64,000 nt of DNA from a virus. The first letter of the stretch is position 1. The number at the start of each line of letters is the position of its first letter. The stretch spans positions 1 through 64,000 of the IMG/VR virus record IMGVR_UViG_3300020198_000009; one strand, written 5' to 3'. The notes under the pieces were generated by a model. That model was given only the letters and a program-made list of their open reading frames with translations, ran no database searches and was not told the origin of the DNA. Below are positions 10,323 to 64,000 of this stretch, one piece after another. The position numbers and the translations under genes are program-made.

Positions 10323-10422
10323 TCCTCATGACTACCCCTTCCTGTCCCTCGCGGGACGGTCGCGGCGCAGTGGCGGCGGCTCGATGCCAGGCCTTGCGCC
10401 AGGTGGTGGTGGTGGGGGGGGG

Positions 10423-11851: not shown

Positions 11852-11960
11852 CTCGCAGCCTGTCAGAGCCGCTTCCGCTTGCCGCTTGCTAAATAAATGA
11901 ATAACCCCTCCTAAGTAAAATTACTCGCAGCCTGTCAGAGCCGCTTCCGCTTGCCGCTTG
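11852..11960. repeat. Perfect 37-bp direct repeat x2 flanking a 35-bp AT-rich spacer (possible mini-CRISPR-like unit)
   Basis: CTCGCAGCCTGTCAGAGCCGCTTCCGCTTGCCGCTTG at 11852-11888 and 11924-11960; spacer CTAAATAAATGAATAACCCCTCCTAAGTAAAATTA. Confidence 0.9.
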
Positions 11961-12225
11961 GGATCCCCATGGCAGACGAGCATGGCCCGCCTGCCATGGG
12001 GATGCCGGGGAAGCTTCCCCGGCAAAAGGCGACCTGCCCGTGGACGACACGGCCTACGCCGTACCGGGGCCGATACGAGGTTCGCCACGCCCCGACCCCT
12101 TCACATCGCTACCCACGGGCACTTTTCTCGAAGCGCCGCGAAACACCGCCTTTCCGCCCGGCGGCAGGGGCATCGCTTAATTCATGGCGATCCTCCCTTC
12201 AACGAGCCCAAAAGCGCGTTTCAGG

Positions 12226-21938: not shown

Positions 21939-21978
21939 TTCCATGGAGGGCGCCCGGGCGTCCCACTTGGAGAGCTGC

Positions 21979-34365: not shown

Positions 34366-34790
34366 GCAGCGGGACTCTTTCCGGCCTTGGCGGCCTCGTA
34401 GGCACGATCGCAACCCAGCGGCAACCCGACGTCATGCCCATGGTGGTAGCCGATCTGGGGATCGCGCCGGTAGCCGACCGCCGCCCGGGCCGGTCGCCAG
34501 GCCTCGCCCCCGAACGGCGACTGCTTGGGATAGCACAAGGTGTAGAGCACGGCCCAGAACGCTTCGAGCTGGTAGTCCGCCGGCACCTGGGGCAAGAAGC
34601 GCACGTGCTCGACCGTCATGCCGCCAGGCGCGAAGGCGAAGACGAGCTCCTCGATGGCAAAACCGCGATCCGCCAGGTCCTTGAGGGCGCATTCGATACC
34701 GATGCAAGCGTCGGCGAACTGGCCACCCCCTTCGCGCAACGCGGCCGCAATGGCCTCTTGGAGGTAGTCGGCTGCGTCGGATTCGGTCAC
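34362..34790 (-). CDS. Hypothetical protein
   Basis: Protein-like ORF coupled to the sigma gene. Confidence 0.5.
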   Translation of the reverse strand: MTESDAADYLQEAIAAALREGGGQFADACIGIECALKDLADRGFAIEELVFAFAPGGMTVEHVRFLPQVPADYQLEAFWAVLYTLCYPKQSPFGGEAWRPARAAVGYRRDPQIGYHHGHDVGLPLGCDRAYEAAKAGKSPAA

Positions 34791-40513: not shown

Positions 40514-41443
40514 CTAGGTCAACGTCTGCTTGAGCACGCCGCGCCGGTTCATGATTGACCGACCGATGATTTCGCGCGTATTGGTCGAGAGGATGCCGTC
40601 CTCGAACTTGAGCCACTGCTCGGCGTCGGCGAGCATCTTGGCGACGCCCAGGTACTTCTGGGGGGCCAGGTAGTATAGTATGCCTTCTGGGATGACGTCC
40701 GAATTATTCGTCGTCGCCCAGACAAGGCCGAACCAGGACTTGTAGCTCGTAGCGTCGCCCTTGGCGCCGTGTTCGACGATCGGCTGCATCACCAGCGAGC
40801 CCACTTCGCTGCTATTCCAACGAAGGATGTCTGCGTACGTCGCTTCGTGCAGCGCTACGCTCTGGACCATCAGTCGATTCCGGCTGACGGCCTTGAGCGC
40901 CTCGGACAGGGCGTCCTTGCTGAACGGGGCTGCGCTGGAGATGTCGTTGTCGTCACCGACCGAAGCGACACAGCGCTCGAAAGCGTTCACCAGGAAGATG
41001 TCCTCGACCGCGAGGATGTCATTCTTGGCGACGCTTTCGACAAAAGTTCGTATCGGGTAGTTGTTGGCGAGCAGCTGGGTCTCGGTCAGGCGGATCGTCT
41101 TGGTCTTGATGGGTTTGAAGTACACCGGCGCGACGCTCGACCGGAACCAGAGATCCTTGGACGGCTGCATGAAGTCGACGGCCGTCGCCAAGTACTCGTT
41201 GAACTGAACGGCCACCGGCACGAAAATGACCGGCACGTCGGGATAGTCCTTGTCGGTCGACAGCTGCATGGGCGTCACCGGCTCGAAGGGGAGCAGGCGA
41301 CGGCCGATGCCGTCTTCCCGGAGCAGGGTCAGGACGATGTCCTCGTTGATGGTGTTGGCCACCTTCTCGCGGCCCGCTTCGCCGTTGCGCAATTCGAGCA
41401 AAAGGCCCTGATTGAGCGTCCGGGCGTCTGCCATGTCACTCAT
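40514..41443 (-). CDS. Major capsid protein (HK97-type, inferred)
   Basis: 309 aa; EKVA leader; LREDG..RR.LP..PVT; KNDI...ED..L; P.G..Y..AP.KYLG; REIIG..I.N..GV. Position after protease/scaffold/decoration genes. Confidence 0.75.
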   Translation of the reverse strand: MSDMADARTLNQGLLLELRNGEAGREKVANTINEDIVLTLLREDGIGRRLLPFEPVTPMQLSTDKDYPDVPVIFVPVAVQFNEYLATAVDFMQPSKDLWFRSSVAPVYFKPIKTKTIRLTETQLLANNYPIRTFVESVAKNDILAVEDIFLVNAFERCVASVGDDNDISSAAPFSKDALSEALKAVSRNRLMVQSVALHEATYADILRWNSSEVGSLVMQPIVEHGAKGDATSYKSWFGLVWATTNNSDVIPEGILYYLAPQKYLGVAKMLADAEQWLKFEDGILSTNTREIIGRSIMNRRGVLKQTLT

Positions 41444-42904: not shown

Positions 42905-43108
42905 CTAGGCCAATGGAGGCTGGTTGCAGAGCTCCATGAAGATCAGGTCCTCATAGATGCCGGCCAGCTTCTCGGTGTAGATCGGGTCGAACCCGGCGGC
43001 CGCAGCGCCCGGCACCGTGCCGGCGGCCTTCTCGGCGCCCAGCTGCATGGCCGCGGCGCGGAGTTCGGCGGCGACCTTGCCCAGCGCTTCTTCGATCTTG
43101 GGATCCAT
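42905..43108 (-). CDS. Small KxA-motif head protein
   Basis: KVA, KAA, KLA in 67 aa. Confidence 0.55.
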   Translation of the reverse strand: MDPKIEEALGKVAAELRAAAMQLGAEKAAGTVPGAAAAGFDPIYTEKLAGIYEDLIFMELCNQPPLA

Positions 43109-43120
43109 GGGGATGATCTC

Positions 43121-43402
43121 CTAAGAGGCGGCGTAGCCGGCGTTGAAGGCGGCCTGCTTGTCGAGTTCGAACAGGATGGCGTCGAACTCGGGATCGGCGG
43201 CGGCGAGTTTGTCGAGCTGGTCGTAGAAGGCCGTGTTGAAGAGATCGGAAGCCGCGTCGTCCTGGGCATAGGCGCTCTTGACGGCCAGTTCTTCCCAGTA
43301 GGCGTTGTTCCAGGCGATCTCGGCGGCCGATTTGGTCTGCTGGAGCTCGGGGACCGCGCCCTGATTGGCCAGCAGGTTCTGGTAGGCGGTGTAGGGATCC
43401 AT
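43121..43402 (-). CDS. Putative internal head/scaffold protein with MDPYTAY leader
   Basis: MDPYTAYQ; KSA x2, KLA, KQA. Confidence 0.6.
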   Translation of the reverse strand: MDPYTAYQNLLANQGAVPELQQTKSAAEIAWNNAYWEELAVKSAYAQDDAASDLFNTAFYDQLDKLAAADPEFDAILFELDKQAAFNAGYAAS

Positions 43403-43543
43403 GTCTTCCTCCTACTGGACGGAACCAGCGGCGTAGCCGGCGTTGAAGGCGGCCTGCTTCTGCTGCTCGAACAAGAGGGCGTCGAACTCGGGGTCGGCCG
43501 CAGCGAGCTTGTCTATCTGATCGAAGAAGGCCTCGTTGAAGAG
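43128..43543. repeat. Diverged direct repeat of about 116 bp (43128-43243 and 43428-43543) encoding paralogous C-termini
   Basis: LFNxAFxDQxDKLAAADPEFDAxLFExxKQAAFNAGYAA in both genes; first 32 bp identical. Confidence 0.85.
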
Positions 43544-43861
43544 GGCCTGCTTGGTCTGGGGATCGAAATCGTACTCGGCGGCCTCTTTGGCGACCAGGTC
43601 GCCCAGCAGCAGGTTGCGCTCGGCCAGGGCCGCGTTGTAGCGGGTGATGGCCGCGGTCGCGTACGCCGCCTTGATGTGATCGGGCAGATTCGCGATGTCC
43701 TGCGCGATCTTCTCGGCCGGGACTTCCGGATTGCCCTGGCCGGCCGCCTTGATCTCCGGGGCGGCCGGGTCGATCGCCGGAGTCTCGGCGGGTGCCGCCG
43801 CAGCGGCCTTGGTGACCTGTTCCTGCTCCATTGCGGTCAGGAGATCGTCGAGGTAGCTCAT
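43412..43861 (-). CDS. Putative internal head/scaffold protein, KxA-rich
   Basis: KAA, KIA, KEA, KQA, KLA; CTATAAT promoter at 43888-43894. Confidence 0.6.
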   Translation of the reverse strand: MSYLDDLLTAMEQEQVTKAAAAAPAETPAIDPAAPEIKAAGQGNPEVPAEKIAQDIANLPDHIKAAYATAAITRYNAALAERNLLLGDLVAKEAAEYDFDPQTKQALFNEAFFDQIDKLAAADPEFDALLFEQQKQAAFNAGYAAGSVQ

Positions 43862-49732: not shown

Positions 49733-50104
49733 CTAGCCCCCGATGGCCATGGCCGAGGCGTTGGGATCGGTGATGCGGCTGTTGTCGAACTTGGGCATGT
49801 TGAGGACCCGCTGGCGCATGTCGTCATCGGCGGCGAACTTGGCCTTGCCATCCTGCCGGTAGTAGTTCTCGATGAACCGCTCCATGTCGGGCAGCTGATG
49901 AGCGCAGCCTGGCTCGATGCGGAAGATCAGGGGCTTGCGGTCGTCCTTGAAATGCCACTCGCTCTCGTCGTCCGAATTCACGACGATGTCGAAGTCGTCG
50001 TATGGATAGATGGTGCCCTTGTAGGTCAGGCCGTCACGAATGAGCTCGGGAACGGGAACTTGGGTGTTGACGGTGGCGCCGCGCAACGGCAGTCGAAAAC
50101 CCAT
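49733..50104 (-). CDS. Hypothetical protein, divergent from terminase
   Basis: MGFRLPLRG...; protein-like composition. Confidence 0.5.
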   Translation of the reverse strand: MGFRLPLRGATVNTQVPVPELIRDGLTYKGTIYPYDDFDIVVNSDDESEWHFKDDRKPLIFRIEPGCAHQLPDMERFIENYYRQDGKAKFAADDDMRQRVLNMPKFDNSRITDPNASAMAIGG

Positions 50105-50160
50105 CTTTTCACGATCTCCTTGTATCTGAGTGTCTGGTGGTATTACCATACTAGCACAGG

Positions 50161-53058
50161 ATGTCGAGCGAGACCTTCATCGAGGACGGCGAAACCGGAC
50201 GCCGCGTCATCGTCACGGACCGAAAGAAGATTGCCGAGGCGGTACTGCATCTCAAGGGCAGGCCCCTCAAGCTCGACAACTACCGGCCCTTCCATGCCAT
50301 CTACCGCACTTCGGCACAAAACCTTGTGATACAGGCGGGACGGCAAGTGTCAAAATGTGGCACCGGCGAGAACATGATCCCCATGTTCAACGGCATGCCG
50401 GCCAGGCTCGGCGCCCTCCGGCCAGGCGATAAGGTTTTGTCTCTGGCATCTGGCTACCGCCTGGTGACTGGACAGGTGAGCGACACCATCCAAGCCGGCA
50501 GGAAGCCATGCGTGCGCCTGACGACCCGCTTGGGGCACGAGCTGGAGGTCGCCCGGAGTCATCCGATTCGCGGTCTGTTCGACTACTATCCGGCGGGCGA
50601 ACTCAAGATTGGCGACCGAGTGGCGGCTGTGCGTCGCGGCGGCTCCTTCACAGACCTGAACCCCATAACGCCGACCGAGGCCATGGTGCTCGCCTACATG
50701 ATTGGCGACGGCAGCGCTCAGGGTAAGCAGAACTTCGGCTTCACGAACTCCAAACCGGAGATCTTGGCCGAGTTCCGGTCATGCTGCGCCATGCTGGGCC
50801 AGGTCGCGCCACGAGAGTACGAACGCAAGGGCTCCTTGACGCTTCGGCTCTCGCTGGCATCGGATGCCCCGGTTCGTCGTCTCCTGGAACATCAGGGTAT
50901 CTATGGCAAGACCTCGGAAACGAAGTTCATCCCAGCCGAGGTATTCGACCTCGATCGCGAGCGCACGGCGCTCTTCCTGAATCGACTCTGGGCGTGCGAT
51001 GGCCATGCCAAGCAACTCAATCCTGGGAAATATGAAATCCACTACGCCACAATCTCGAAAAAACTGGCCCATGGCGTTCAAGCGCTCCTGTGGAAGTTCG
51101 GAATCCCGGCCTCGGTATCCCGGAGTCAACCGAAAGTCTATATAGGCACCAACAAATTCGCCTACAAGGTGCGAATTGAAACCCAAGAAGGTATCCGCCG
51201 CTTCTTGACCGAGATCGGCGCTTTCATGAAGAGCGAGAGCATCCCACTTCCGGCAGCCGAGAGTAACAATAACCGCGATACCATCCCGCAGGACGTGCAA
51301 AAGCTCATCACGGCACTCTACGAGCGCGCCCTGGCCCGGGATGCCCTGTGCGGACCCGGGCGTGCGGGGCGGCCTAGGGCTAGCATCACGGATCACGGCC
51401 TGCGCGCCACCCTAAAATACCCCCCCTCGCCACGAAAGATCGCCCAATACGTCGAGTTCTTTCAGCAGATCGGGCTCGGAGACGAACCGGAAACCATTAC
51501 CCTCGAATCACTGATCAACAACGACGTGATCTGGGATAAGATTATTGCGATCGAAGACATCGGCATGCAGGATTGTTACGACATCGAAGTCGATGTTCTG
51601 CACAACTACATCCTGGGCGGCGTTGTCACCCATAACTCGACCACCCTGGGAAACTGGTCCATCACCGACGCCATCGGCGTGCCCCATTCCGAGCAGTTGA
51701 TCGTCCTGCCCTCGATCATGCAGATGCGCCGCTTCTCATCGGACAAAGTGGGAAAAATCGTCGCCACCAGCCCGCTTGTCAAGAAATGGTTCGTCGACCA
51801 CACCTGCGAGCGCGCCATCTACAAACGCAGCTTCCTCAACGGCTCGACCATGGAATTCGCCGCCATGACCCAGATGGAATCCATACGCGGCGGCGCCAAG
51901 AACCGGGTGTCGGAAGACGAAGTGCAGGACATGGACCTGGACGCGCTTGCCATAGTGGAGGAGGTGCTAAGCGGACAAGCAAGTGACAAGATAGCAATTG
52001 CCCGCACCGGCACGGCCAAGACCGTCGGCAACACGCTGGATGTGACGTTCAAGAAATCGAGCCAGTGCGAATGGATAGTGCCATGCCCAAGCGGTCACCA
52101 CAACGTCCCGAGCCCGGACAACATCGGCGATCGGGGCTTCATTTGCAAGAAATGCCGCAGCCTCTGCGACGTGCGCGGTGGCTACTGGCGCTCCATGGCG
52201 GGCCTCGACGCCGAGTGGATGGGCTTCCACATCCCCCAGATCATCCTGCCGCTCCATACCGAGGACCAAGGAAACTGGCGCAAGCTCCTGCGAAAGCGCA
52301 ACGGCGGCGTCAGCCCGGTCGTCTTTCTCAACGAGGTCATGGGCATTCCTGCCGGCTCGGGCATCACCGCCCTGACCGAAGAGGACCTGATCAAGTGCTG
52401 CGAACCGGTCTACGAGATAGACCCCCACTACTTCCGCGGCAAGGACCACGACATCGCCGTGGTATTCGGTACCTGCGACTGGGGCCTGATGGCCATCAAG
52501 AGCTTCACGATTGCCAGCATCTGGGGGATCACCAAGGCCGGGCGCATCAAGCTGCTGTTTGCCTATCGCTTCCTGGACCCCGATCCCTACAAGCAGGTCG
52601 AGCAGATCATCCGGCTCTTCACGAACGCGGGGGTCGAGCTGGTCGGCTGCGACTGGGGCATGGGCATGATCCAGAGCCGCATCATCGAGGAGCAGATGCC
52701 CCAGGTCCCGGTCCATCGCTTTATGTACGTCGGCGAGCAGCGGGCCCTGATGAGCTGGTACAAGGAGGGCAAGCTCTGGCGGGTGAACCGTACCCAGGCC
52801 ATGACCGAAGCTTTCGTCTGGATGAAGCGCCAGCGTTTCTGGTTCCCGAACTGGTCATGGTTCAAGGAATACATCGCGCCGGATATATTATGTATTTACG
52901 AAGAGGCAGTAAATCAAGTCACATTCAAGAACGATGTCATACGGTACGCACACCCCGATTCCCAGGCCGATGACGCCACTCACACCTGCGTCTACGCCCT
53001 GCTGCTCCTTTGGATCCTTTATGACCGCGGCCGTACGGAGTTCCATCTGGCAGGCTAG
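50161..53058 (+). CDS. terL: Terminase large subunit (GpA-like) interrupted by an intein
   Basis: Walker A AGRQVSK|STT, Walker B IRG....RVSEDEVQD, GTAKT, SSQ.EW...C, GFHIPQ, NEVMG, nuclease G.DWG and HPD...DD..H. Confidence 0.9.
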   Translation: MSSETFIEDGETGRRVIVTDRKKIAEAVLHLKGRPLKLDNYRPFHAIYRTSAQNLVIQAGRQVSKCGTGENMIPMFNGMPARLGALRPGDKVLSLASGYRLVTGQVSDTIQAGRKPCVRLTTRLGHELEVARSHPIRGLFDYYPAGELKIGDRVAAVRRGGSFTDLNPITPTEAMVLAYMIGDGSAQGKQNFGFTNSKPEILAEFRSCCAMLGQVAPREYERKGSLTLRLSLASDAPVRRLLEHQGIYGKTSETKFIPAEVFDLDRERTALFLNRLWACDGHAKQLNPGKYEIHYATISKKLAHGVQALLWKFGIPASVSRSQPKVYIGTNKFAYKVRIETQEGIRRFLTEIGAFMKSESIPLPAAESNNNRDTIPQDVQKLITALYERALARDALCGPGRAGRPRASITDHGLRATLKYPPSPRKIAQYVEFFQQIGLGDEPETITLESLINNDVIWDKIIAIEDIGMQDCYDIEVDVLHNYILGGVVTHNSTTLGNWSITDAIGVPHSEQLIVLPSIMQMRRFSSDKVGKIVATSPLVKKWFVDHTCERAIYKRSFLNGSTMEFAAMTQMESIRGGAKNRVSEDEVQDMDLDALAIVEEVLSGQASDKIAIARTGTAKTVGNTLDVTFKKSSQCEWIVPCPSGHHNVPSPDNIGDRGFICKKCRSLCDVRGGYWRSMAGLDAEWMGFHIPQIILPLHTEDQGNWRKLLRKRNGGVSPVVFLNEVMGIPAGSGITALTEEDLIKCCEPVYEIDPHYFRGKDHDIAVVFGTCDWGLMAIKSFTIASIWGITKAGRIKLLFAYRFLDPDPYKQVEQIIRLFTNAGVELVGCDWGMGMIQSRIIEEQMPQVPVHRFMYVGEQRALMSWYKEGKLWRVNRTQAMTEAFVWMKRQRFWFPNWSWFKEYIAPDILCIYEEAVNQVTFKNDVIRYAHPDSQADDATHTCVYALLLLWILYDRGRTEFHLAG
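50356..51636 (+). mobile_element. Intein with LAGLIDADG homing endonuclease (427 aa) in the terminase Walker A
   Basis: Begins C(GTGE), ends VVTHN before Ser; block B T..G.EL.V...HP; LAYMIGDGS and FLNRLWACDG; YDIEV..HNY. Confidence 0.92.
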
Positions 53059-53204
53059 GCCCGATGCGTCGCCCCGCAGTCCCGGCAAATCACGACCTGC
53101 TCGCTCTGGGCCAACGCACCGTCCGAGCCGCGCTTTTCGAGTTCCTGGGTATCGACGTTGCCCGACTCGCAGACCTGGCAGTGGAGGCGTCCGTCCTTGA
53201 TCAT
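53055..53204 (-). CDS. Small zinc-ribbon protein
   Basis: MIKDG..CQVC...EKRG...CRDCG. Confidence 0.5.
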   Translation of the reverse strand: MIKDGRLHCQVCESGNVDTQELEKRGSDGALAQSEQVVICRDCGATHRA

Positions 53205-53206
53205 GG

Positions 53207-53698
53207 CTAGGCCGCCAGATTGAGGTAACGCAGCGCGTAGCGCTTGTCGAGGGATATCAGATGGCGTGAATACGCTGGGTCGGTGGCGTACCCGCACTCG
53301 CGCAGCCCGTTGGCCCAGCCCTCGAAATCCCCCTTGGCCAGCTTGAAGAGCGGTCGATACCGCTTGCCCAGTAGGAACTTGGCGTGATCCACGAAGGACT
53401 CGACCATGCTAGGGTAGGCCCGGAAGTAGTGGTACTCGGTCACGTAGCGGCCATGGCGCCACTCCTTGGTGCGTCGCAGGACCTTGGGGCCGGCCCAACG
53501 CTCGTCGGCCTTGACCCCGAAGTAGTTCTTGGCGCCGCCGGCATCGCTCTTGCCGCCGTTGGATTCGAGTAGCCACTGGGCGAACGTGATGCCGGCCGGC
53601 ACCCCGAAGAGCCGCTCGGTGGCCTGGGAGGCCTTGGCGGCCTCGTCCCAGAGGGCCCGGGCGGACGTGCCGGGCTTGGGCCAGTTGCTATTGGGCAT
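53207..53698 (-). CDS. GH73/FlgJ-like glucosaminidase (endolysin or virion muramidase)
   Basis: AQWLLES.GGKS...NYFGVKA...W.G...T.E....FRAY.S..ES..DH..FL...RY; GYATDPAY. Confidence 0.9.
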   Translation of the reverse strand: MPNSNWPKPGTSARALWDEAAKASQATERLFGVPAGITFAQWLLESNGGKSDAGGAKNYFGVKADERWAGPKVLRRTKEWRHGRYVTEYHYFRAYPSMVESFVDHAKFLLGKRYRPLFKLAKGDFEGWANGLRECGYATDPAYSRHLISLDKRYALRYLNLAA

Positions 53699-54137
53699 CC
53701 GATGTTCCCTCTATCGCGGCGACGTAAGCCTGACGGGAGACCTTCTCGAAGGTCTTGTTGAGCGAAATCGTCCAACAGTCGGCCTTCATCACCAGGACCA
53801 GGGTGGCACCTGGCAAGACGCCAACCCATTGCGACGATTGCTCGTGGAGAATGGACATTCGAACACCGCGCAAAGCGGCCTCAAGCTTGAGGGTTTGCTT
53901 CCGATCGCTGGTGTCGTCAATCAGCACGAAGCTGAACGCGTCATCCTGGTTGACCCCGCTCCAGCGGGCCAGTTTCCCCTGCACATCGACGTACTCGAAC
54001 TCGCAGCCCACCTGGGGGATCTGGGGCTCGTAGTAGAGCTGGAAGGCGATCAGGTTGCCGGGATCGATGGCCTGGCCATCGAGATCGATCCGGGTGGTCG
54101 CGAGCGTGCCTTCCGAGGTGGCCTTGACGACGCTCAT
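53688..54137 (-). CDS. Hypothetical protein
   Basis: MSVVKATSEG...; RBS GGAGG. Confidence 0.5.
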   Translation of the reverse strand: MSVVKATSEGTLATTRIDLDGQAIDPGNLIAFQLYYEPQIPQVGCEFEYVDVQGKLARWSGVNQDDAFSFVLIDDTSDRKQTLKLEAALRGVRMSILHEQSSQWVGVLPGATLVLVMKADCWTISLNKTFEKVSRQAYVAAIEGTSDAQ

Positions 54138-54427
54138 GGGGTAGCCTCCCCGGACGGCTCCTGCGCCTCCATGAAGTCCGGAAGCAAGCGCCGACTGATG
54201 CCGCTCTCCGAGAGAATGTTCCAGACGACACCGCCATTGACGAGCCGAGCAGCCTGGTCTTCGAGGACGTCGACACCGACCCATGCCTCCTCGTCGGTCT
54301 CGAACTGCGAACGGATGGACCGGAAGACCTCCTGGCGCTCGGCGGCGGGCTTGCGCATGGCGAGCGGATTTGCGCGCAGCGCCGCCAGAAAGCCCTGGTC
54401 GAGTTGGCGCGCCTCGTCTATTCCCAT
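54134..54427 (-). CDS. Hypothetical protein
   Basis: MGIDEARQLDQGFL...; overlaps a short upstream ORF (54418-54528). Confidence 0.45.
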   Translation of the reverse strand: MGIDEARQLDQGFLAALRANPLAMRKPAAERQEVFRSIRSQFETDEEAWVGVDVLEDQAARLVNGGVVWNILSESGISRRLLPDFMEAQEPSGEATP

Positions 54428-54568
54428 GGATCGATCTCGCTCTCGAACTCCTTGTCGGCCAGCGCCTGGCGCAACCAGGGATCGATCGGGGCCACCTCGC
54501 CCGGGATGGTCTGACTGGTCTCGTCCATGAATAATAAGGATAGCAGGTAGGACCAGCAGGAGCAACCA

Positions 54569-55123
54569 TTGGATCGAGCCTGGGAAATCGCCGCCGCCCT
54601 CGACTTCGTGGCCGAGTGCCGGGGCAAGGCGGCCGCCATCCACATCGGCCCCAACTCGGAGCGCCTGGCCGAGAAACTCCTGGTCATGCGCCGCATTCCT
54701 ACCGAACGCGCCCCGCTCGACGCAATCGGCAAGCAGCGATTTGCGCGGGCATTCGAGAATCTTTCCGAAGAAGGGAAAGACCGCCTGTCGGTGCGCGTCC
54801 AGCCCTTCAAGCAGGCCAGCGAGTTCGCCTACATCTCCGAAGTGCCCATCGCCGGCGAGCACTTCTCGAACCAGCGCCTGGAAAACGACTACATGTTCAA
54901 GCATCCGGTCATCAGCACGCTCCATCCAGCCCCCTGGGTCGGGGCGGCGCTGGGGGCCGTCGTGGGCCGACGGTTACACAAGAACCTCCTGGGCTCGGCC
55001 ATGATCGGCGGCTCCGCCGGCCTGCTCGCCGAGGGCGCCCATCGCCTGAATTTCCTGCTCGGGGCCCGCAAACAGCTCCAGGCAGGCAAGAACCCGCTCG
55101 ATCGCAGGTTCGCCAAGCTGTGA
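54569..55123 (+). CDS. Putative virion protein with glycine-zipper C-terminus
   Basis: KAA, KQA; GAALGAVVG..GSAMIGGSAG; RBS AGGAG. Confidence 0.5.
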   Translation: MDRAWEIAAALDFVAECRGKAAAIHIGPNSERLAEKLLVMRRIPTERAPLDAIGKQRFARAFENLSEEGKDRLSVRVQPFKQASEFAYISEVPIAGEHFSNQRLENDYMFKHPVISTLHPAPWVGAALGAVVGRRLHKNLLGSAMIGGSAGLLAEGAHRLNFLLGARKQLQAGKNPLDRRFAKL

Positions 55124-55314
55124 CCAGCGAGTTCCTGGTGAACTGGCACCACGTCGCCCTGGCGGGATTGTTCGCCGTCAGCCCCCTCCTGCTCGCCGGC
55201 CTCATCATCCTGGCCAGCATCCTCCAGGGCCGCTGTACGGCCTGCGCCGGGAAGCTCGCCGGCAGGCACTTCCCCTGGTGGCTGTGCGCGGCATGCAAGG
55301 CGGGCAGACCATGA
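55120..55314 (+). CDS. Small membrane protein with CxxC pairs
   Basis: Hydrophobic VALAGLFAVSPLLLAGLIILA; CTAC, CAAC; GTGA/ATGA overlaps. Confidence 0.45.
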   Translation: MTSEFLVNWHHVALAGLFAVSPLLLAGLIILASILQGRCTACAGKLAGRHFPWWLCAACKAGRP

Positions 55315-56426
55315 TCCGCACCACCAAGTCGCTCTACCTGCGCACGGTCGAACTGGCCAAGGACACGGTACCCGAGCCCTTCCTGAATTACGGCCACGCC
55401 GACGATCTGGGCCTGGGCTGGTTTCCATCGCGCGAGGCGTTCTCGGACAATGCCGATCCGGTCTTTTGGCGTGGGTTGCCACGCTTCTGCGGGGCGGTCT
55501 TCCCCTACCGCCACAACTTCCAGACCCTCTCACACCTGACCATCATCCCCTATACCGAATTCAATCAGCTCGATCGCCAGAAACGCTTCTGTCTGCCCAA
55601 CCGGCGACGCACCGGCAAGACGCCCGCCGGAGTCTTCGGCATCGAGCGCCTGCGCCGCAAACACAAGGTCCTGGTGGTCACCGACGACGAGGCCGCGGTC
55701 TGCAAGGATCCCGACACGATCGCCGTGAGCAACCTCGACGCCACCCTGATTCGCTTCATCTGCCGCGCGGCCCACAACATCGAGGTACAGGGCTCGACCG
55801 CGGGCTGGACGGCCAGGATGTTCGATCTCGCGCGCCATGGCACCCCGGTGAGCGTCAACGGCGTGGACATGGTCGAGCACGTCGCGGGCAAGATCCTGGA
55901 GATGTTCCACCAGCGCGCATCGCTGCCCATCCTGACCCACCGCGCCGTCGAGTACCTCAACTGCCTGCTGCCCATCCAGCGCATGGCCGTCATCGGCATC
56001 CTCAAGCAGGAGCACAACCTCGATCTGTCCCGCACGTTGCCCGACGACTTCCATGTCTTCCGCCGCGAGGGGGATTTCTATGATGCCGTGGGGCAGGCGC
56101 TCCGTGCCAAGCTGGCCGACGCGCGCTTCGAACCGCCTTTCGGGATCCAGGTGACCAGCCGGGACGGCAGGCGCCTGCTGGTGCCCTACGAACGGGGAGT
56201 CCTGGGGGCGGTACTGGCCGAGCTGGTGGGCGCCAGGCTCGACCTGCTCGACTGGGCCTATGATCAATTGCAGGAGCTCCCTCACTTCTATCTCTTCAAG
56301 GAGCACGAGCAGCTGGCCACCCGGGCCGAGGTCTCGCGCAAGGTCGAAGAGGTGGCCCTGGCCGTCTTGAGCCGCATGGCCGCCGAGGCCGACGCCCGCA
56401 AACCGATCGGGAGGATAGCGCAATGA
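55311..56426 (+). CDS. Hypothetical protein (weak, unconfirmed primase/TOPRIM-like look)
   Basis: VFPYR..., GVFGIE.L....VLVVTDD; function not established. Confidence 0.45.
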   Translation: MIRTTKSLYLRTVELAKDTVPEPFLNYGHADDLGLGWFPSREAFSDNADPVFWRGLPRFCGAVFPYRHNFQTLSHLTIIPYTEFNQLDRQKRFCLPNRRRTGKTPAGVFGIERLRRKHKVLVVTDDEAAVCKDPDTIAVSNLDATLIRFICRAAHNIEVQGSTAGWTARMFDLARHGTPVSVNGVDMVEHVAGKILEMFHQRASLPILTHRAVEYLNCLLPIQRMAVIGILKQEHNLDLSRTLPDDFHVFRREGDFYDAVGQALRAKLADARFEPPFGIQVTSRDGRRLLVPYERGVLGAVLAELVGARLDLLDWAYDQLQELPHFYLFKEHEQLATRAEVSRKVEEVALAVLSRMAAEADARKPIGRIAQ

Positions 56427-57883
56427 CCCCCTACGAGCACTACCTGCTGGCCAAGGAAGCGAACTGGCTGGGGAATATCGGCCAGGGGTTTGCGCAAGCC
56501 GGCCGCAACGTCGGCCAGGCCGCCAAGCAGACCTGGACATTCGCGCGCAACCAAGGCCAGGAGCAGTCGGCCAATTGGTTTGGCCGCCAGCTGGGTGAAA
56601 ACGCCATACGGGGCTATCGCAACGAGCCCCTCTCAGCCTGGGGGCAACTCAAGGCCTTCGGGGTCGGCGTCTTGAGTCCGACTGCCGGCCAGGCCATGCT
56701 CGCCAGCCACTCGGGCGGGCGGGCAGTCGGGGGCGCTCAGGCGATCGCCGACTGGGCGCGGCCCCACCTGGCTCGCTTCGGTCGGCCCAAGCCCCAACCG
56801 GTCCATCCGGGGCTGCTGATCGCCGGCGGCCTGGGTGCCGGGGCGGCGGGCTACGGGGCCGCCCGGCTCATCGACGCCAAACAGCAGGAGGCCCAGGCGC
56901 AACGCCAGAACGCCCTGCTATCGCGCCAATTGACGCCCTACGAGGAGGCTCCGTACCAGAAGGTCGCCCAGATCCGGGCCCTGCTGGACACCGAGCGCGA
57001 CCTGCGCGCGGGCCTGATGGCCTCAGCCAAGGCCGCCGCGGCCCGGCGTGCCGAAGCCTGGCGCCACGGATCCCGCGAGGCCGAAGCCGAATCGGAAGGC
57101 GAGCCGGGCGGCGTCAAGCGGGCCGAGCTCGATCGCACCGCCACCAGGCTCCTGCGCGCCATCGAGCCGAAGTATGGCGGCTGCTGCCAGGATCTCGTCG
57201 AAGGCAAGGCGCTCGACAACGCCCATGCCCGTGGTGACCACCTACTAACCGAAAACGATGTCCAGAAAGCCTGGCGGGAGCATGGCCGGCCCTACCTCAT
57301 CCGTGAGAAGCTCGAAAAATCCGAGAGCTTGCCACACAAACTCGCCAGCCGCATCTTCCTGGGCGGGGCGGTCTCGGGCCCGCAGGCCAACTGGCGTGAG
57401 GGGATCAAGCGCAAGCTCTGGGAGAAGGGCCACAGCGTCATCGATCCCCGCAAGCCCTTCGTCAAGTGGAATCCGCTCTCGGACATCTACAAGGAGCTCG
57501 CGGGCATGATGAGGGCCGACAAGGTGTTCTTCTTCCGGCCCGGGGGCTTTTCTGAGCGCGAGAAGGCCGTGCTGGAGGCCGCGAAGAAACCCTACCAGGT
57601 GGTGCGCAAGCCCGAGGAGATCGTCCAGGCCGTCGAACAGAAGCGGGCCTACGATGCTATGCTGCCGGTCGATCTGCGCGGGGCCGGGACCCAGACGCCC
57701 TCGGCCTTCCCGGTCGACCAGCACGGCCAGCCCATGACCACCTTGCGCGGCATGCTCGAAGGCGACCTCGCTATGATCACCCTGGCAAGGTACCTGCGCG
57801 ACAAGAAGCTCAGCGAATTCGATCCCATCCTCTTGTCGCTGCTCGAACAGGCGGGCAAGCGCGCACTGACCAGGAGGCCCTGA
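56423..57883 (+). CDS. MTPYE-leader virion polyprotein containing a nucleoside 2-deoxyribosyltransferase-like domain
   Basis: MTPYEHYLLAKEA; internal LTPYEE..YQKVA; IFLGG......WR..I.......VIDPR....W.....E...M.RAD.V.F (about 57347-57640) bounded by KLA and KRA. Confidence 0.6.
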   Translation: MTPYEHYLLAKEANWLGNIGQGFAQAGRNVGQAAKQTWTFARNQGQEQSANWFGRQLGENAIRGYRNEPLSAWGQLKAFGVGVLSPTAGQAMLASHSGGRAVGGAQAIADWARPHLARFGRPKPQPVHPGLLIAGGLGAGAAGYGAARLIDAKQQEAQAQRQNALLSRQLTPYEEAPYQKVAQIRALLDTERDLRAGLMASAKAAAARRAEAWRHGSREAEAESEGEPGGVKRAELDRTATRLLRAIEPKYGGCCQDLVEGKALDNAHARGDHLLTENDVQKAWREHGRPYLIREKLEKSESLPHKLASRIFLGGAVSGPQANWREGIKRKLWEKGHSVIDPRKPFVKWNPLSDIYKELAGMMRADKVFFFRPGGFSEREKAVLEAAKKPYQVVRKPEEIVQAVEQKRAYDAMLPVDLRGAGTQTPSAFPVDQHGQPMTTLRGMLEGDLAMITLARYLRDKKLSEFDPILLSLLEQAGKRALTRRP

Positions 57884-57884
57884 C

Positions 57885-58493
57885 ATGACCCCGTACGAGT
57901 GCTACATGGAGCTGATGAAGACGGCCCATTCGGCCGAGATGGATCGCCTATCGGACCTGGAAAAGGAAGCTTTCTTCGGGGCGCTGGCAGCGGGACTTGG
58001 TCGCGGTTTCGCGGGGGCGGGCGCGGCGATGCGCGCGGGTGGCGGATTGGGGCAAACCCTCGGCGCTTTTACCAGCCGGTTCAGCCGGGGATGGAGATCC
58101 GCCACGCAGCCGCGAGTAGCGAGCCGGGGCCTCGGCACCAACCAAACCTTCAGACGGCCCCCAAGACCGGCAGCGCCCACTTCAACCGCCACGGCGAGTG
58201 GCCAGACGTCTTCGGGAGTCGCCAGCGGCAACGCCCCGGGCTTCATGGGCACGCCCATCGGAACGACCATGAAGAACTGGAAACAGATGACCCCGGCTGA
58301 GATGATGCAAGGGGCAGGATCGGTCCTGGCGGGCGCCGGCGGCCTGCTCACCGGCCTGGGGCTCATGCGGCCGGCCGCCAAGGCGCGCAGCCTCATGGGT
58401 CCGGCCGCGACGGTCGCCACCGGCCTGGCCATCGGCGGTGGCCTCTCGGGAGCGGGCAAGGCCCTGGCGGGTCCGGGATACACCAACTACTAG
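57885..58493 (+). CDS. MTPYE-leader Gly/Ala-rich putative ejection protein
   Basis: MTPYECYMELMKTA..EKEA then FFGALAAGLGRGFAG. Confidence 0.6.
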   Translation: MTPYECYMELMKTAHSAEMDRLSDLEKEAFFGALAAGLGRGFAGAGAAMRAGGGLGQTLGAFTSRFSRGWRSATQPRVASRGLGTNQTFRRPPRPAAPTSTATASGQTSSGVASGNAPGFMGTPIGTTMKNWKQMTPAEMMQGAGSVLAGAGGLLTGLGLMRPAAKARSLMGPAATVATGLAIGGGLSGAGKALAGPGYTNY

Positions 58494-58506
58494 GAGGGCA
58501 GGCACC

Positions 58507-58929
58507 ATGACCCCATACGAGCTGTACATGGCCAGGCAGAAGGAAGCGGCCTGGTCCGACTTCACCGATGCGTTCGTGAACGCCAAGAACTACTTCGGCG
58601 GTCGCAATCCCCAGGGGCTCAGGCAGGCCGCCACCGCCGCCAAGTTCGGCTTGGGCGATCTCGGCCGAGGGGCCGCCAATGTCTTGGGGCACATCCCCCA
58701 GGCCTATCCCCACCTGGCCGGCGCCGCCACCGCCGCCAGCCTCGGCAGCATGGCCCTGGGGGGTCTGCGGGCCCTGCGCGAAGACCGCATGGCCGCCCAG
58801 GCCGGCCAGGAAGTCACCAGGGCCTTCAAGCCGCAGGCCACCAGACTGACCGACAGCGGCAAACTCGCCCTGGTAGGGGCTGCCGGCGTCGGCGGCGGCT
58901 ACCTGCTCGGCCGGGCCGGCAACCAGTAG
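58507..58929 (+). CDS. MTPYE-leader Gly/Ala-rich putative ejection protein
   Basis: MTPYELYMARQKEA; RBS AGGAGG; C-terminal GAAGVGGGYLLG. Confidence 0.6.
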   Translation: MTPYELYMARQKEAAWSDFTDAFVNAKNYFGGRNPQGLRQAATAAKFGLGDLGRGAANVLGHIPQAYPHLAGAATAASLGSMALGGLRALREDRMAAQAGQEVTRAFKPQATRLTDSGKLALVGAAGVGGGYLLGRAGNQ

Positions 58930-58936
58930 GCACGCC

Positions 58937-59341
58937 ATGTCTCCCTACGGCCTGTACATGGCGCAAAAACGCGGCAGTATCCACGGCGTGTTTCCCGAAC
59001 TCGCCGCCGGGCCCGGGGTGCTCGACGCCATGGCCACGGCCTGGCGAGACATGCGCCATACCCGCATCCGCTCGCAGCGCGACGCACTCCTGGCCCAGGC
59101 CGATACGGCCGCCAGCCCCGCCCAGGCCAGCCGCCTGCGCGTCCAGGCCAACCAGCTGAGAGCCAAGCTGCCACTTCCGCCGCGACACGGACCGGCAGCC
59201 CCCGCGCGGGCCGATAGCCGGCATCACCCCGCCTTCGATCCGCCGCCGATTCCCGAATCGCCCGGCTCCTACGAGGAGCTGGCGGCCATGCGCGATCGGG
59301 CACGCCAGCTCGCCCAGGGCCAGACACCAGCCAAGCGATAA
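58937..59341 (+). CDS. MSPY-leader small protein
   Basis: MSPYGLYMAQKRG; directly precedes the RNAP gene. Confidence 0.5.
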   Translation: MSPYGLYMAQKRGSIHGVFPELAAGPGVLDAMATAWRDMRHTRIRSQRDALLAQADTAASPAQASRLRVQANQLRAKLPLPPRHGPAAPARADSRHHPAFDPPPIPESPGSYEELAAMRDRARQLAQGQTPAKR

Positions 59342-59345
59342 GGCC

Positions 59346-62300
59346 ATGCGCGCGCCAGCCGAGACCCACCAGGCGATGACCCGGGCGCTGGAAGCCGGCC
59401 TCAAGCAGGTATTCCCGGTTGCGGCCGGCAACCGCATGCTCGATCTGGTCGCGGTCCATGCCCCCGACCTGCCGGATCCCCATGACTGGAACGGCCAGAA
59501 GGACGCGGTCATGGATGGTAGGACCTGGGGCAGCCCACTGCGCGCCACCCTGGCGCTCAAGGATGCACAGGGCAAGGTGCTCGACCAGAAGGCCGTGAGG
59601 CTGGCCACCATACCGGCTCCGACCAATCGCCACACGTTCATCGTCGATGGCCGGGAGTACCAGGTCAACTACCAGCGCCGGCTGAAACCCGGGATCTACA
59701 CCAAGGTCGATCGCACCGGCGCACCGGTGGCCGACTTCAACCTCGGACATGGCCGCAACTTCGCCGTCACGCTCGACCCGGAACGGAACCAGTTCCATCT
59801 GCGCCTGGGCAACGCCCACATCCCCCTGGGCCATGTCCTGGCTGGCCTGCGCGAATCGGGAGATCCCTCCCTGGGGCTGGGCAAGGCCTTCGAGCACCCG
59901 GCGGGCCCGGAGGAGACCGAGCGCGCCTTGCGGGAATTCTATGTCCAGACCCACCGCAACAAACCCATCCCTGCCGACCTGGCAGGCCTCAAGGCCGCCG
60001 TCCGCACCTGGTTCGACCACGCTACGCTCTCGCCCGAGACCACCCGGCTCACGGTCGGCGAATCCTACGGCCATGTCACCGACCAGGCGTTGCGGACTGC
60101 CGCGAGGCATGTCCTGGAAATCCACCGCGGCGATCGTCATCCGACCCACAAGGATCAGCTGGCTTACCAGGAGATCCACGGGGTCGAGGACTTCCTCAAG
60201 GAACGCCTGGTCAAGAACAAGCTGGGGCTGCACGGCCGGTTGCGCCAGACCCTCGATCGGGCCGACAAGCTCGCGGACCTCAACCTACCGGCGACCTTCG
60301 GGCCGTCAGTGCACCACTTCTTCACCCAGAGCTCGCTCTCGAACCATCCCATGCAGGTCAACCCGCTGGAAATGGCCGAGAACGCCCACAAGATCACCTC
60401 GATGGGCGAAGGCGGCATCGGAGACGCCAACGCCATCCCGATCGAGGTCAGGAACATCCATCCATCCACGTTGGGCTTCATCGACCCGGTCCGCACGCCC
60501 GACAACGCCCATGCCGGCGTGGATGTCCGCACCACCGTGCGCTCCCGCAAGGTCGGGAACCAGCTGGCGATTCCCGTCCGCGATGCCAGGACCGGCCGGG
60601 AGGTCTTCAAGACCCCTGGCGAGCTGTTCGACACGCACGTCGCCCACGACAGGGAGCCCGCCGAGAACGGCGTGGTACGCGCCATCCACCAGGGCCATGT
60701 CGTCTGGGCAAAGCCAGAGCAGATAGACTACCACCTCCCGACCGAGCACCAGTTCACGGTCAGTACGGCCCTGGTGCCCTTCATCCCCAACAGCCACGCC
60801 CACCGGGTGGCCATGGGCGCCAAGATGCTGGGCCAAGCCGTCAGTCTCGACGACCGCGAGGCGCCGATCGTGCGGACCGCCCATGCAAATACCGCGATCT
60901 CGGGCCTGTTGCCGCGCAGCCCGGTCGACGGGACCGTGGCCACGATCGTGAACGGAGCCATCAAGATCCAGGACAAGGACGGCAAGAGTCACCTCGCGCA
61001 CTATCCGCACGAGTTTCCGCTCAACGGCGGCTCGTTCCTGCATGCAGACCTGCATGTCAAGCCCGGCGACCGGGTCTCGCAAGGGCAGGTCCTCGGCGAC
61101 TTGAACTTCACCCGCGACGGCAACCTTGCACTTGGAAAAAATTTAACCGTTGCTTATCTGCCGTATCGTGGCCATAACTTCGAAGACGGCCTGGTGGTTA
61201 CCGAACAGGGTGCCCGCAAGCTTACCAGCAGCCACCTGCATACCGAAGTCGCCCTCAAGGACGGCCGCAACGTCTACGATCTCAAGCAGTTCAAGGGCCA
61301 CTTCCCCTCGACCTACACCCACGAGCAGCTCGGCAAACTCGATCCCCATGGCGTGGTACGCGTGGGCCAGGAGGTCGTCGAGGGCGACCCGCTGGTCGCG
61401 GGCCTGCGCAAGCGCGTGGTCGATCCCGAGCAGCTCATCCTGGGTAAGGCCCACAAGGGCCTCATGGAGCCCTACCGGGACGCCAGCCTGACCTGGGACA
61501 AGCCCTACGCCGGCAAGATCACGGCCGTATCCAAGACCGGCGACCAAATAAAGGTGACCATCCAGGCCAAGGCGCCGCTCCAGTTGGCCGACAAAATCTC
61601 TAATTTGTACGGCGCGAAGGGCGTCGTGACAACGATCATCCCCGACCACGAGGCGCCCCGGACAGCCAGCGGTGAGATCCCCGACGTCATCCAGAACTCG
61701 GCGGGCCTGATCAGCCGCATGAACAACGGCCAGCTCTACCACCTGACCGCCGCCAAGGCCGTCAAGGCCCTGGGGCTCGATCACATGGTCTTCCCGCAGT
61801 TCCTGGGCCAGGACGCCCACGAAGTGGTCTCGCGCCTGGCCGAAAAGGCCGGCATCGCCCCGGAAGAAGAGCTGTTCGACCCCAAGACCAATCGCAGTCT
61901 GGGTAAGGTGATGATCGGCCCGCAGTACATGCTCAAGCTCTTCAAACAAGCCGAGACCGGCTTCTCGGCGCGGGCCGGCGGGCGTTATGACGTCGATCTG
62001 CGACCGGCCAAGGGCGGCGAGGAGGGGGCCAAGTCCATCGGCTACCTCGACGTCTTCGGGTTGCTCAGTCACGGCAGCCGTGGCCTGTTGCGCCAGGCGG
62101 CGACCACCAATGCCGAATTCAACCCCGAGGTCTTGCAAGCCATATGGCGGGGCCAGCCCCTGCCGCCCCCCAGGCCCACGTTTGCCTGGCGGAAGTTCGA
62201 GGCCATGTTGCGCGGGGCGGGCGTCAACGTCACCCAGGACGGCCACAAGCTGGTCATGCTGCCGATGACCGACCAGGACACCCTGCGAGTCTCGCAGGGC

Positions 62301-63635: not shown

Positions 63636-63689
63636 ATTAGAACACCCTTTCGATTGCAACCAACCAAGGAAGCGTCGTATCGTGGTTGC

Positions 63690-64000
63690 ATGTCCGAGAA
63701 GCGCTACAAGCCCTACGTCTGGGTCACCTGGATCACCAAGCTGCTGGCTGGCGAATCGCATTGTCGCTGGTCGGCCTGGTTCCGGGCCAACTACAAGTAC
63801 AGCAAGCTGCCGAGCGATTTCTCGTTCGCCAAATGGAAGGCCGAGCACTCGGAACTGGTCAGCAGGCGCGCCAAGGAGCTGCGCGACGCGGGCTACACGG
63901 TCAAGCTGGAAGACCAGAACGCCTTCAAGCTCGACGGCCGAAACGGCGTGACACTCGCGGGCAAGCCCGATCTGATCGCCTTCCGGACGGCCGTCGAGAA
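63690..64000 (+). CDS. PD-(D/E)XK nuclease (RecB/Cas4-like), cut by window edge
   Basis: YVWVTWITKLLAGE..C.W.AWF...; E.QN.F.L.G..G.TLAGKPDLIA. Preceded by TTGCAA-18-TATCGT promoter-like sequence. Confidence 0.7.
   Translation, partial: MSEKRYKPYVWVTWITKLLAGESHCRWSAWFRANYKYSKLPSDFSFAKWKAEHSELVSRRAKELRDAGYTVKLEDQNAFKLDGRNGVTLAGKPDLIAFRTAVE

Follow-up and report, generated by a model that had tools for sequence, protein, structure and literature searches.

Architecture of the P0001 gene and its product

The window analysed here comprises the first 64 kb (64,000 nucleotides) of an 80,429-bp virus contig from IMG/VR (record IMGVR_UViG_3300020198_000009, designated G000), and the gene under study encodes a 486-residue protein of several modules, P0001 (Table 1). 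Its ATG overlaps the stop codon of the gene before it, a Shine-Dalgarno sequence (GGGAGG) lies 8 nt upstream, and the GC fraction at third codon positions is 0.85. From the N-terminus, the modules are a short leader, a Gly-Ala-rich region, an internal leader-like element, a small module with the motif GGC-x-x-D, a domain resembling nucleoside deoxyribosyltransferases (NDTs) and a C-terminal module. An earlier reading of the DNA letters (hereafter the original prediction) had described a virion polyprotein with an MTPYE..KEA leader, a second internal TPYE..KVA element and a series of K-x-A tripeptides bounding an NDT-like stretch. Both leader elements are indeed present (residues 1-13 and 170-182). 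The stretch singled out at 57347-57640 corresponds to residues 309-406, is flanked by K306-L-A308 and K407-R-A409, and its pattern reads as it was quoted.

The K-x-A tripeptide occurs seven times in P0001, at residues 11, 180, 203, 232, 306, 407 and 479. The Gly/Ala-rich region contains a glycine-zipper-like hydrophobic stretch, GLLIAGGLGAGAAGYGAARL, at residues 130-149. Internal leader-like elements recur outside P0001: P0004 has QAPYEEEQKAA at the matching position, and a 485-residue open reading frame (ORF) of the related contig L020 has two such elements, ..PYDLFL..KSA and ..SYDLFM..KSA. The GGC-x-x-D module, which gave no family match, always lies upstream of the NDT-like domain in the proteins where it is found (P0001, P0004, P0005, P0006 and P0008), and the phmmer alignments of P0001 with P0004, P0005 and P0008 begin between residues 188 and 237.

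A word-indexed search returned P0002 as the only relative, with 66% identity over residues 306-485 and an unrelated N-terminal half. The conserved unit common to P0001 and this closest relative is residues 306-486, wider than the 309-406 noted originally.

A predicted NDT-superfamily domain

Pfam gave a single, sub-threshold match on P0001, to PF15891 (Nuc_deoxyri_tr2), spanning residues 310-375 and profile positions 3-78 of 105 (E=4.2e-4). No match to P0001 was found in PHROGs, NCBIfam or PADLOC, and PF05014 matched nothing on the contig. An exhaustive phmmer search with residues 300-486 against 1.84 billion representatives returned 37 proteins at E<=0.001. PF15891 matches (E<=0.01) were present in 31 of 36 homologues, eight of which reach the curated cut-off with scores of 30.2-38.9 bits (P0010, P0012, P0015, P0016, P0020, P0023, P0025 and P0036); all eight are linked by phmmer to residues 309-405 with E-values of 1e-4 to 1e-8. 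One candidate, the inverse-autotransporter/Big_1 repeat protein P0011, was rejected as a relative, each of its eight matching stretches having by itself an E-value of at least 0.003. The nearest solved protein by sequence profile was YtoQ (E=0.021), and a phmmer search with residues 300-486 against PDB sequences gave only rows with E>1.

An AlphaFold model built from 32 sequences contains a block with predicted local distance difference test (pLDDT) scores of 91-97 over residues 310-399, in which a strand is followed by a helix four times. The model has the flavodoxin-like three-layer alpha/beta arrangement with a parallel sheet that defines the NDT superfamily at the level of fold. A scan of 48,161 PDB chains with VIA, which is independent of Foldseek, placed NDT-superfamily structures at all of ranks 1-12 (Z 8.0-11.2, 99-110 residues aligned). 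The top match was the Leishmania NDT 6qai (Z 11.2, root mean square deviation 2.5, 101 residues aligned), and the remainder were 1t1j, 7m5h, YtoQ 8of6, 7o62, MilB 4ohr, 4mcj, CtNDT 8rh3, 6evs, RCL 2khz, the molybdenum-cofactor carrier 2iz5 and PTD 1s2d. Below these (Z <=8.0) came sugar-binding proteins, TIR domains and further Rossmann-like folds. TIR was rejected as the best fold, its Z scores of 7.4-7.9 falling below those of the NDT rows. The top Foldseek rows were NDTs and human DNPH1 (E about 2e-3, probability 1.00), and among ten ESM Atlas structure rows six carried an NDT-clan family (DUF4406, PF05014 or PF15891) and half were mainly viral.

On the combined profile and model evidence, residues 309-406 are an NDT-superfamily domain. 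The original prediction had recognised an NDT-like pattern here and had named the lack of an NDT/flavodoxin-like fold as grounds for giving it up; the AlphaFold model, the PDB scan, Foldseek and the Atlas all give the KLA-KRA fragment that fold, and the pattern is borne out by the PF15891-matching homologues.

Conserved residues and possible activity

Eleven residues are invariant in all 33 domain sequences aligned (F312, L313, G315, W324, D341, P342, W349, I355, Y356, E358 and E380). Position 377 is Ser or Thr in 33/33, and R325 and D366 are present in 32/33. The model places these conserved residues where NDTs have their pocket: strands 1-3 carry them at the C-terminal end, and helices 2 and 3 at the start. 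For CtNDT, E88 is reported as the nucleophile, with Y7 and D62 within 3.5 Å of it (PMC10913048). In this family, [ST]377-x-x-E380 stands at the start of the helix that follows strand 3, and helix 2 carries E358. The distance from E358 to E380 is 22 residues, against 26 from D62 to E88 in CtNDT, a comparison made by spacing only. By order and spacing, E380 would be equivalent to the NDT nucleophile and E358 to D62. Strand 1 reads [VI]FLGG with F312 invariant. YtoQ was the one solved relative that could be aligned by sequence, and its VYLAG pairs with VFLGG. The Tyr of YtoQ we take to be Y7 of the NDTs, so an invariant Phe appears to stand in for Tyr7 in this family.

Because the domain combines an NDT/DNPH1 fold with an invariant [ST]-x-x-Glu and a second invariant Glu, its most likely role is to cleave an N-glycosidic nucleotide substrate, or at any rate to bind one, judging from the model and from its characterised relatives. 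We think it quite unlikely that the domain is a non-catalytic nucleotide-binding module, acting as a sponge or sensor rather than as an N-glycosidase. The fold is certainly common to binders, with the molybdenum-cofactor carrier at Z 8.2 and TIR/SLOG-like structures at Z 7.4-7.9; the Phe at the Tyr7 position would suit such a role, as would the family alignment, which shows no clear counterpart of D111, the leaving-group acid given for CtNDT (PMC10913048). However, two Glu and one Asp invariant in 33/33 sequences are more typical of catalysis, the few copies that could be injected would make a poor sponge, and the fusion partners of the domain (2H, ART, GNAT and ParB) are enzymes.

Domain fusions and the C-terminal module

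In 7/36 homologues (P0017, P0021, P0024, P0027, P0030, P0034 and P0037) the NDT-like domain has a phosphoesterase of the 2H/Acb1-like type as its fusion partner. In three of the 36 it is also joined to ART-PolyVal, and all three carry the 2H domain too (P0017, P0024 and P0027). A GNAT fusion is found in P0006 and ParB-like fusions in P0005, P0006 and P0008. P0001 itself gave no 2H, Acb1 or LigT match. Since the two are fused in 7/36 homologues, the NDT-like and Acb1-like 2H domains may act on related nucleotide substrates, as these domain arrangements suggest. The proposal that domains of this kind take part in phage-host conflict systems fits the fusions to Acb1-like 2H phosphoesterases and ART-PolyVal.

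The C-terminal module opens with the consensus K-x-A-[FY]..P[VF]D...TPSxFPxD..GH..T.LR and continues with three helices up to a basic end. It is found apart from the NDT-like domain in P0009 (leader, Gly-rich part and module), in P0022 (ParB and module), in P0029, where it stands alone, and in a 793-residue protein of the related phage G001. Modelled alone it had a mean pLDDT of 62, with its most conserved part disordered and three helices after it. We read it as a probable docking or anchoring element shared between proteins.

P0001 comprises at least four modules, and in its relatives this C-terminal module is combined with exchangeable parts (ParB, GNAT and an ART-like region), as expected of a polyvalent protein. 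The original term, polyprotein, captured the multi-module character, but 'polyvalent protein' is the better description.

A leader peptide shared by unrelated proteins

The leader pattern M[TS]PY[EDG].Y[ML] occurs nine times in the six-frame translation of the contig and in none of 100 second-order Markov simulations. All nine copies are at ATG starts, most with a GGAG-type ribosome-binding site. They begin at 56423, 57885, 58507, 58937 (MSPYG), 68159, 79621 and 80399 and, on the minus strand, at 65290 and 44128; the copy at 80399 is truncated where the contig stops. K-x-A closes seven of these leaders, within 1-6 residues; the other two are the contig-end copy and one with KRG. The Thr and Pro codons vary among the copies, which points to selection on the peptide and not on the RNA.

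The proteins behind the leader are otherwise dissimilar, with only weak pairwise matches between those starting at 58507 and 44128 and between those at 58507 and 68159. Most have hydrophobic Gly/Ala-rich stretches, and most have stretches resembling GLLIAGGLGAGAAGYGAARL. The arrangement is that of a T4-type tag, a short conserved N-terminal sequence on unrelated proteins. The leader is also found in four ORFs of G001, in all three genes upstream of the RNA polymerase gene on contig L021, and in P0003, P0004, P0007 and P0009. Both the simulations and the copies in relatives uphold the leader and K-x-A as real conserved features.

Some further leader genes are worth recording. Variant leaders were seen in a 93-residue protein (MDPYTAYQ..., window 43121-43402, minus strand) and in a 311-residue protein of G001 with seven K-x-A sites (MHDPYSAYLASKQA, 66721-67656), suggesting a tag family broader than MTPYE alone. 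The leader genes at contig positions 79621 and 80399 begin with the same codons, have near-identical 30-nt upstream sequences and lie 778 nt apart; they are a tandem duplication at the contig end. Lastly, a 270-residue leader-bearing protein (contig 65290-64478, minus strand; L002:2478-3290) has a domain in common with P0005 residues 400-512 (E=1.3e-11) and with P0024 residues 1783-1855. By eye, its motifs (..YHG[ST].., ..F[ML]TP.. and ..E.E..) recall ADP-ribosyltransferases; the only Pfam match was DUF7002 (E=0.034).

The K-x-A motif and the head module

The head module on the minus strand runs in the order portal candidate, protease candidate, 79-residue leader gene, three Ala-rich genes, two further genes and capsid. 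Pfam gave no match at E<=0.01 on the protease, portal candidate, capsid or scaffold-like proteins. The 71 predicted proteins were ranked by the excess of K-x-A over the expectation from their own composition. The five highest were a 388-residue protein (14 sites vs 2.7 expected), the protease (10 vs 2.3), the 149-residue (8 vs 2.0) and a 252-residue (8 vs 2.1) protein, and the 93-residue protein (4 vs 0.9). In G001 the top ranks are held by orthologues of the same proteins, at 35-56% identity. Pooled over the protease and scaffold-like sets, K.A is 4.3-fold (G000) and 3.8-fold (G001) over expectation, values that are inflated because the sets were picked afterwards by the same statistic; the recurrence in orthologues of 35-56% identity is the more independent part of this evidence. 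The control motifs A.K, KA, AK, R.A and E.A were flat in the same protein sets (0.6-1.25), and about half to two thirds of the K-x-A sites have A, S or G next after the Ala. As a motif, K-x-A fits a putative head-protease site. The distribution of leader and K-x-A likewise fits a head-protease system, with enrichment in the protease and scaffold-like proteins and a leader gene directly after the protease.

The 388-residue protein (window 21943-23109, plus strand) has the strongest excess in the contig (p about 1e-6), matches DUF6582 weakly (E=1.4e-4) and has a G001 orthologue of 37% identity with 12 sites vs 2.7 expected. It may belong to the core or be one of the main substrates of the protease.

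Table 1. Features of the P0001 gene, its neighbours and the head module, in window coordinates.
Feature	Position	Strand	Basis
P0001, whole gene, 486 aa	56423..57883	+	open reading frame
N-terminal leader MTPYEHYLLAKEA, aa 1-13, K-x-A at end	56423..56461	+	common to 9 contig ORFs; present in relatives
Gly/Ala-rich region, aa 14-169	56462..56929	+	read from sequence
Internal leader-like element LTPYEEAPYQKVA, aa 170-182	56930..56968	+	sequence pattern; counterparts in relatives
GGC-x-x-D module, small, conserved, aa ~235-300	57125..57322	+	motif common to P0004, P0005, P0006, P0008
K306-L-A308, candidate protease site directly before NDT-like strand 1	57338..57346	+	K-x-A placement in relatives
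NDT-like domain, aa 309-406, four strands and four helices	57347..57640	+	Pfam, homologues, fold
C-terminal module, aa 407-486	57641..57880	+	found without NDT-like domain in relatives
Leader-bearing gene, 202 aa, MTPYECYMELMKTA	57885..58493	+	leader pattern
Leader-bearing gene, 140 aa, MTPYELYMARQKEA	58507..58929	+	leader pattern
Variant-leader gene, 134 aa, MSPYGLYMAQKRGS, no K-x-A	58937..59341	+	leader pattern
Fused RNA polymerase beta/beta' gene, 1429 aa	59346..63635	+	leader-gene cluster precedes it in four related contigs
Candidate HK97-fold major capsid protein, 309 aa, K27-V-A29 near N-terminus	40514..41443	-	
Three small Ala-rich, K-x-A-dense genes, 149/93/67 aa, 8/4/3 sites	42905..43861	-	scaffold-like by position
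Leader-bearing gene, 79 aa, MTPYELYMARAKAA, overlaps protease stop codon	43889..44128	-	leader pattern
Candidate head maturation protease, 450 aa	44125..45477	-	phrog_18299, E=9e-12; G001 orthologue 56% identity

Within the P0001 family, the placement of the motif is of more interest than its number. A K-x-A lies no more than 16 residues upstream of FLGG in 8/8 close multi-domain relatives and in 12/33 family members; it precedes the domain in 12 of the 17 proteins in which the domain is internal and in none of the 16 in which it is N-terminal, a tally that gives no probability because the NDT-like sequences are mutually related. Before the C-terminal module, the K is invariant in all 11 rows of the alignment (A3) and the Ala is present in at least 90%, with P0002 reading KVG.

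These placements bear on whether P0001 is cut between its modules at all. It could be packaged as one polyvalent polypeptide, perhaps losing only the leader, with the other K-x-A tripeptides serving as domain edges or as a binding motif, an explanation that we consider somewhat unlikely. It would account for K407-R-A409, the first conserved element of the C-terminal module, which also begins the 88-residue stand-alone P0029 and so may be a structural or binding motif instead of a cut site, or both. It is also in keeping with the K-x-A count of P0001, which is not above chance (7 vs 4.1 expected, p=0.12, rank eleventh), with the conserved basic or helical flank that stand-alone family members have before strand 1, and with the N4 virion RNA polymerase, packaged unprocessed according to Iyer et al. 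2017. On the other hand, an uncut protein does not readily explain the contrast between internal and N-terminal domains, the 4-fold enrichment of K-x-A in scaffold-like and protease proteins or the recurrence of internal leader-like elements. Of the original idea that K-x-A sites divide the protein, it can be kept that the sites are real and placed above chance; the count by itself is not significant, and KRA need not be only a linker.

Related contigs and the RNA polymerase locus

G001 was found with a degenerate DNA pattern of the leader, and L020/L022 and L021 with a narrow profile of close relatives (A2). G001 is a complete 203,733-bp phage record with terminal repeats, whose fused RNA polymerase is 59% identical to that of the window. 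One of its four leader-bearing ORFs encodes the 793-residue protein mentioned above; a small leader gene and the RNA polymerase gene follow it immediately. In this protein, the leader and a Gly-rich part come before a ParB domain of the DdrB-like kind (PF18763, with E=0.0053 and a score under the cut-off), and the P0001-type C-terminal module comes last. On L020/L022 (208 kb), P0006, with ParB, GGC, GNAT, NDT-like and C-terminal modules, is encoded two genes upstream of the RNA polymerase. On L021 (5.5 kb), the three genes upstream of the RNA polymerase all have K-x-A as well as the leader, and the middle one encodes P0003, which comprises the leader, a Gly-rich part, the NDT-like domain and the C-terminal module. 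A variable polyvalent gene with the C-terminal module therefore precedes the RNA polymerase in 4/4 related contigs, and the NDT-like domain is present in 3/4.

Searches beyond these contigs were negative. Among 185,579 prokaryote species genomes, the A2 profile gave 18 pattern matches and no relative; tblastn with P0001 and P0015 and megablast with positions 50000-64000 found nothing among 50,697 phage records; and the RNA polymerase as a single query found nothing in viral contigs. Judged by the RNA polymerase, which is 32.9% identical along its full length, Salmonella phage Arash is the nearest isolate. In virion mass spectrometry of Arash, the fused RNA polymerase was reported to have the most spectra, with 116 proteins detected (PMC10585845). 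No such leader was seen at the Arash locus examined.

The leader proteins need not be virion cargo. The leader could direct glycine-zipper proteins synthesised in the course of infection to, for example, a membrane or assembly site, and the NDT-like domain could work inside infected cells, on nucleotide pools or the chemistry of DNA precursors, a scheme that we regard as improbable. The hydrophobic Gly/Ala stretches in most leader-bearing proteins would suit a membrane, NDT-clan proteins are common as stand-alone phage genes, the adjoining RNA polymerase has no leader, and packaging is something that we infer. Yet one of the leader genes belongs to the head module, where it follows the protease immediately, and the motif that closes the leader is overrepresented in protease and scaffold-like proteins. 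Moreover, the leader is neither hydrophobic nor basic, unlike a signal peptide, and a relative carries a DdrB-like ParB behind the same leader, DdrB of P1 being a head protein.

Several other features of these contigs were noted in passing. The window's fused gene (59346-63635, plus strand) joins beta to the N-terminal part of beta', and the remaining beta' is a 616-residue gene 14 kb downstream (L002:15719-17569; contig 77719-79569); the split beta' layout is the same in Salmonella phage Arash (gp206 and gp216). On L020 (9112-14979) the fused RNA polymerase is 1955 residues long, with an insertion of roughly 500 residues after ...FNLDHDGD, the catalytic Asp loop. This insertion starts with Cys and ends before ...CVTIHVPV, and by eye it looks like an intein in the active-site motif. 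The large terminase of the window (965 residues, 50161-53058, plus strand) contains an intein with a LAGLIDADG homing-endonuclease domain (LAGLIDADG_3 1.3e-18, Intein_splicing 7e-11, GpA_ATPase 4e-7; PHROG terminase 2.6e-31). A sigma-factor-like gene is found at 33250-34413 on the minus strand (phrog_351, E=4e-14), and a sigma factor is also near the RNA polymerase genes in Arash. Window positions 8001-12000 have a GC fraction of 0.70, vs 0.59-0.68 elsewhere in the window.

A proposed head-packaged polyvalent protein

The reading that we favour, and to which we give about an even chance, is that P0001 is a polyvalent, head-packaged, protease-processed ejection protein with a nucleotide N-glycosidase-type domain, from a myovirus-like phage of roughly 200 kb. 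Sequence features and analogy make it probable that P0001 enters the head, is trimmed by the head protease and is then injected together with the DNA; in this lineage the NDT-like domain is apparently among the things so loaded. The MTPYE..Y[ML]..K-x-A leader, like the capsid-targeting sequence of T4, would bring unrelated proteins into the assembling head, where the head protease would cut after K-x-A and remove it. K-x-A sites between modules may let the protease also split the glycine-zipper part, the GGC module, the 101-residue NDT-like domain and the 80-residue C-terminal module from one another. The NDT-like domain, with its NDT/DNPH1 fold, would then act through [ST]-x-x-Glu, at the nucleophile position of such enzymes, and through the second invariant Glu. 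Its target would be an N-glycosidic nucleotide, met immediately after injection, and the effect could be to blunt nucleotide-based immunity or to alter nucleotide pools.

A number of observations count against this interpretation. The contig is metagenomic, with a completeness estimate of 39%. The missing leader of the neighbouring RNA polymerase means that the leader is no general packaging ticket, and the Arash locus offers no parallel for it. The K-x-A evidence is tempered by the unremarkable count in P0001 itself, by the choice of the enriched sets after the fact and by the double standing of K407-R-A409 described above. As regards the domain, the PF15891 score of P0001 is 21 bits, under the curated cut-off of 30, and the alignment ends at residue 375 and so stops short of E380, the putative counterpart of the NDT nucleophile; the position of Tyr7 appears to be occupied by Phe; and the model has four strands, where canonical NDTs have five.

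A bolder joint reading, which we hold to be doubtful, is that the MTPYELYM tag and the K-x-A site, the latter used also within proteins, constitute a lineage-specific and previously undescribed cargo-loading code, by which a quickly reshuffled collection of effector modules beside the virion RNA polymerase gene is packed, and that the NDT-like module of roughly 100 residues, joined elsewhere to Acb1-like 2H phosphoesterases and ART domains, is a new class of injected anti-immunity enzyme, destroying immune signals derived from nucleotides, or the precursors of such signals, through cleavage of the N-glycosidic bond.

A phage makes its first move against the immunity of its host with proteins that are pre-packaged and injected, of which few enzymatic classes are known. 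A grammar of tag and cut site could be used to find cargo proteins across this lineage of uncultured phages of roughly 200 kb. The compact NDT-like family, with its repeated Acb1-like and ART fusions, points to a so far unstudied activity directed at nucleotides, and a single C-terminal module is common to different effectors. If the domain does cleave immune nucleotides or signals derived from nicotinamide adenine dinucleotide, this would be a new phage counter-defence mechanism; if it does not, P0001 is still a clean example of polyvalent-protein modularity.

Comparison with known systems

The domain resembles the NDT clan (NDTs, DNPH1/Rcl, MilB and YtoQ; PF05014, PF15891 and PF11071) in its flavodoxin-like fold, in the hxxGG loop after strand 1, in an invariant acidic residue in helix 2 and in the [ST]xxE, likewise invariant, with which helix 3 begins. 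It differs from NDTs in having only about 100 residues and four strands, Phe for Tyr7, no clear leaving-group acid and marginal sequence similarity. Literature searches found nothing on PF15891/Nuc_deoxyri_tr2 by name or on polyvalent proteins with a phage deoxyribosyltransferase, and no paper on phage NDT-like counter-defence was among the matches listed; the YtoQ papers listed gave no function. Acb1-type 2H phosphoesterases, which act against the cyclic oligonucleotide-based antiphage signalling system (CBASS), are the partners in the seven fusions counted above, P0001 being without one.

For architecture, the closest known systems are the polyvalent proteins described by Iyer, Burroughs, Anantharaman and Aravind (2017). 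As in P0001 and its relatives, unrelated effector domains are joined in one polypeptide, the genes lie in a virion-gene neighbourhood, and domains are shuffled between orthologous loci; the hallmark domains DdrB-like ParB, GNAT, ART and 2H are all present in relatives of P0001. Those authors argued that polyvalent proteins are delivered with the DNA and proposed that 2H domains degrade nucleotide signals of host defence, and a processed form of P1 DdrB has been reported in the phage head (PMC5512222). The main text of Iyer et al. 2017 contains no occurrence of 'deoxyribosyltransferase', 'NDT' or 'SLOG', and by such word searches of the main text the NDT-like domain, the leader and the GGC and C-terminal modules are not covered there.

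For the logic of the protease motif, the ejection proteins of SPN3US/phiKZ-type phages are closest. Many of their head-internal proteins are reported to have N-terminal propeptides that the prohead protease removes at a short Glu-ending motif, which is also repeated within the propeptides (PMC10052503). The lineage and the motif are different, and the short leader shared between proteins here contrasts with the long, unique propeptides there.

For mechanism, the capsid-targeting system of T4 is the closest analogue. The T4 internal proteins are described as diverse anti-restriction proteins that share only the capsid-targeting sequence, and as counter-defence cargo injected with the DNA (PMC3012670). 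T4 IPI-III and Alt, which are processed by gp21, like the P0001 set carry a short N-terminal tag on unrelated proteins, ending at a protease motif (a putative one in the P0001 set). The prohead-protease motifs of T4 and of SPN3US-type phages end in Glu, the full SPN3US-type motif being A/S/G-X-E. Unlike the T4 system, the tag described here has an unrelated sequence (MTPYELYM..K-x-A), its putative cleavage site is K-x-A, and leader-like elements are found inside the proteins as well as at their N-termini.

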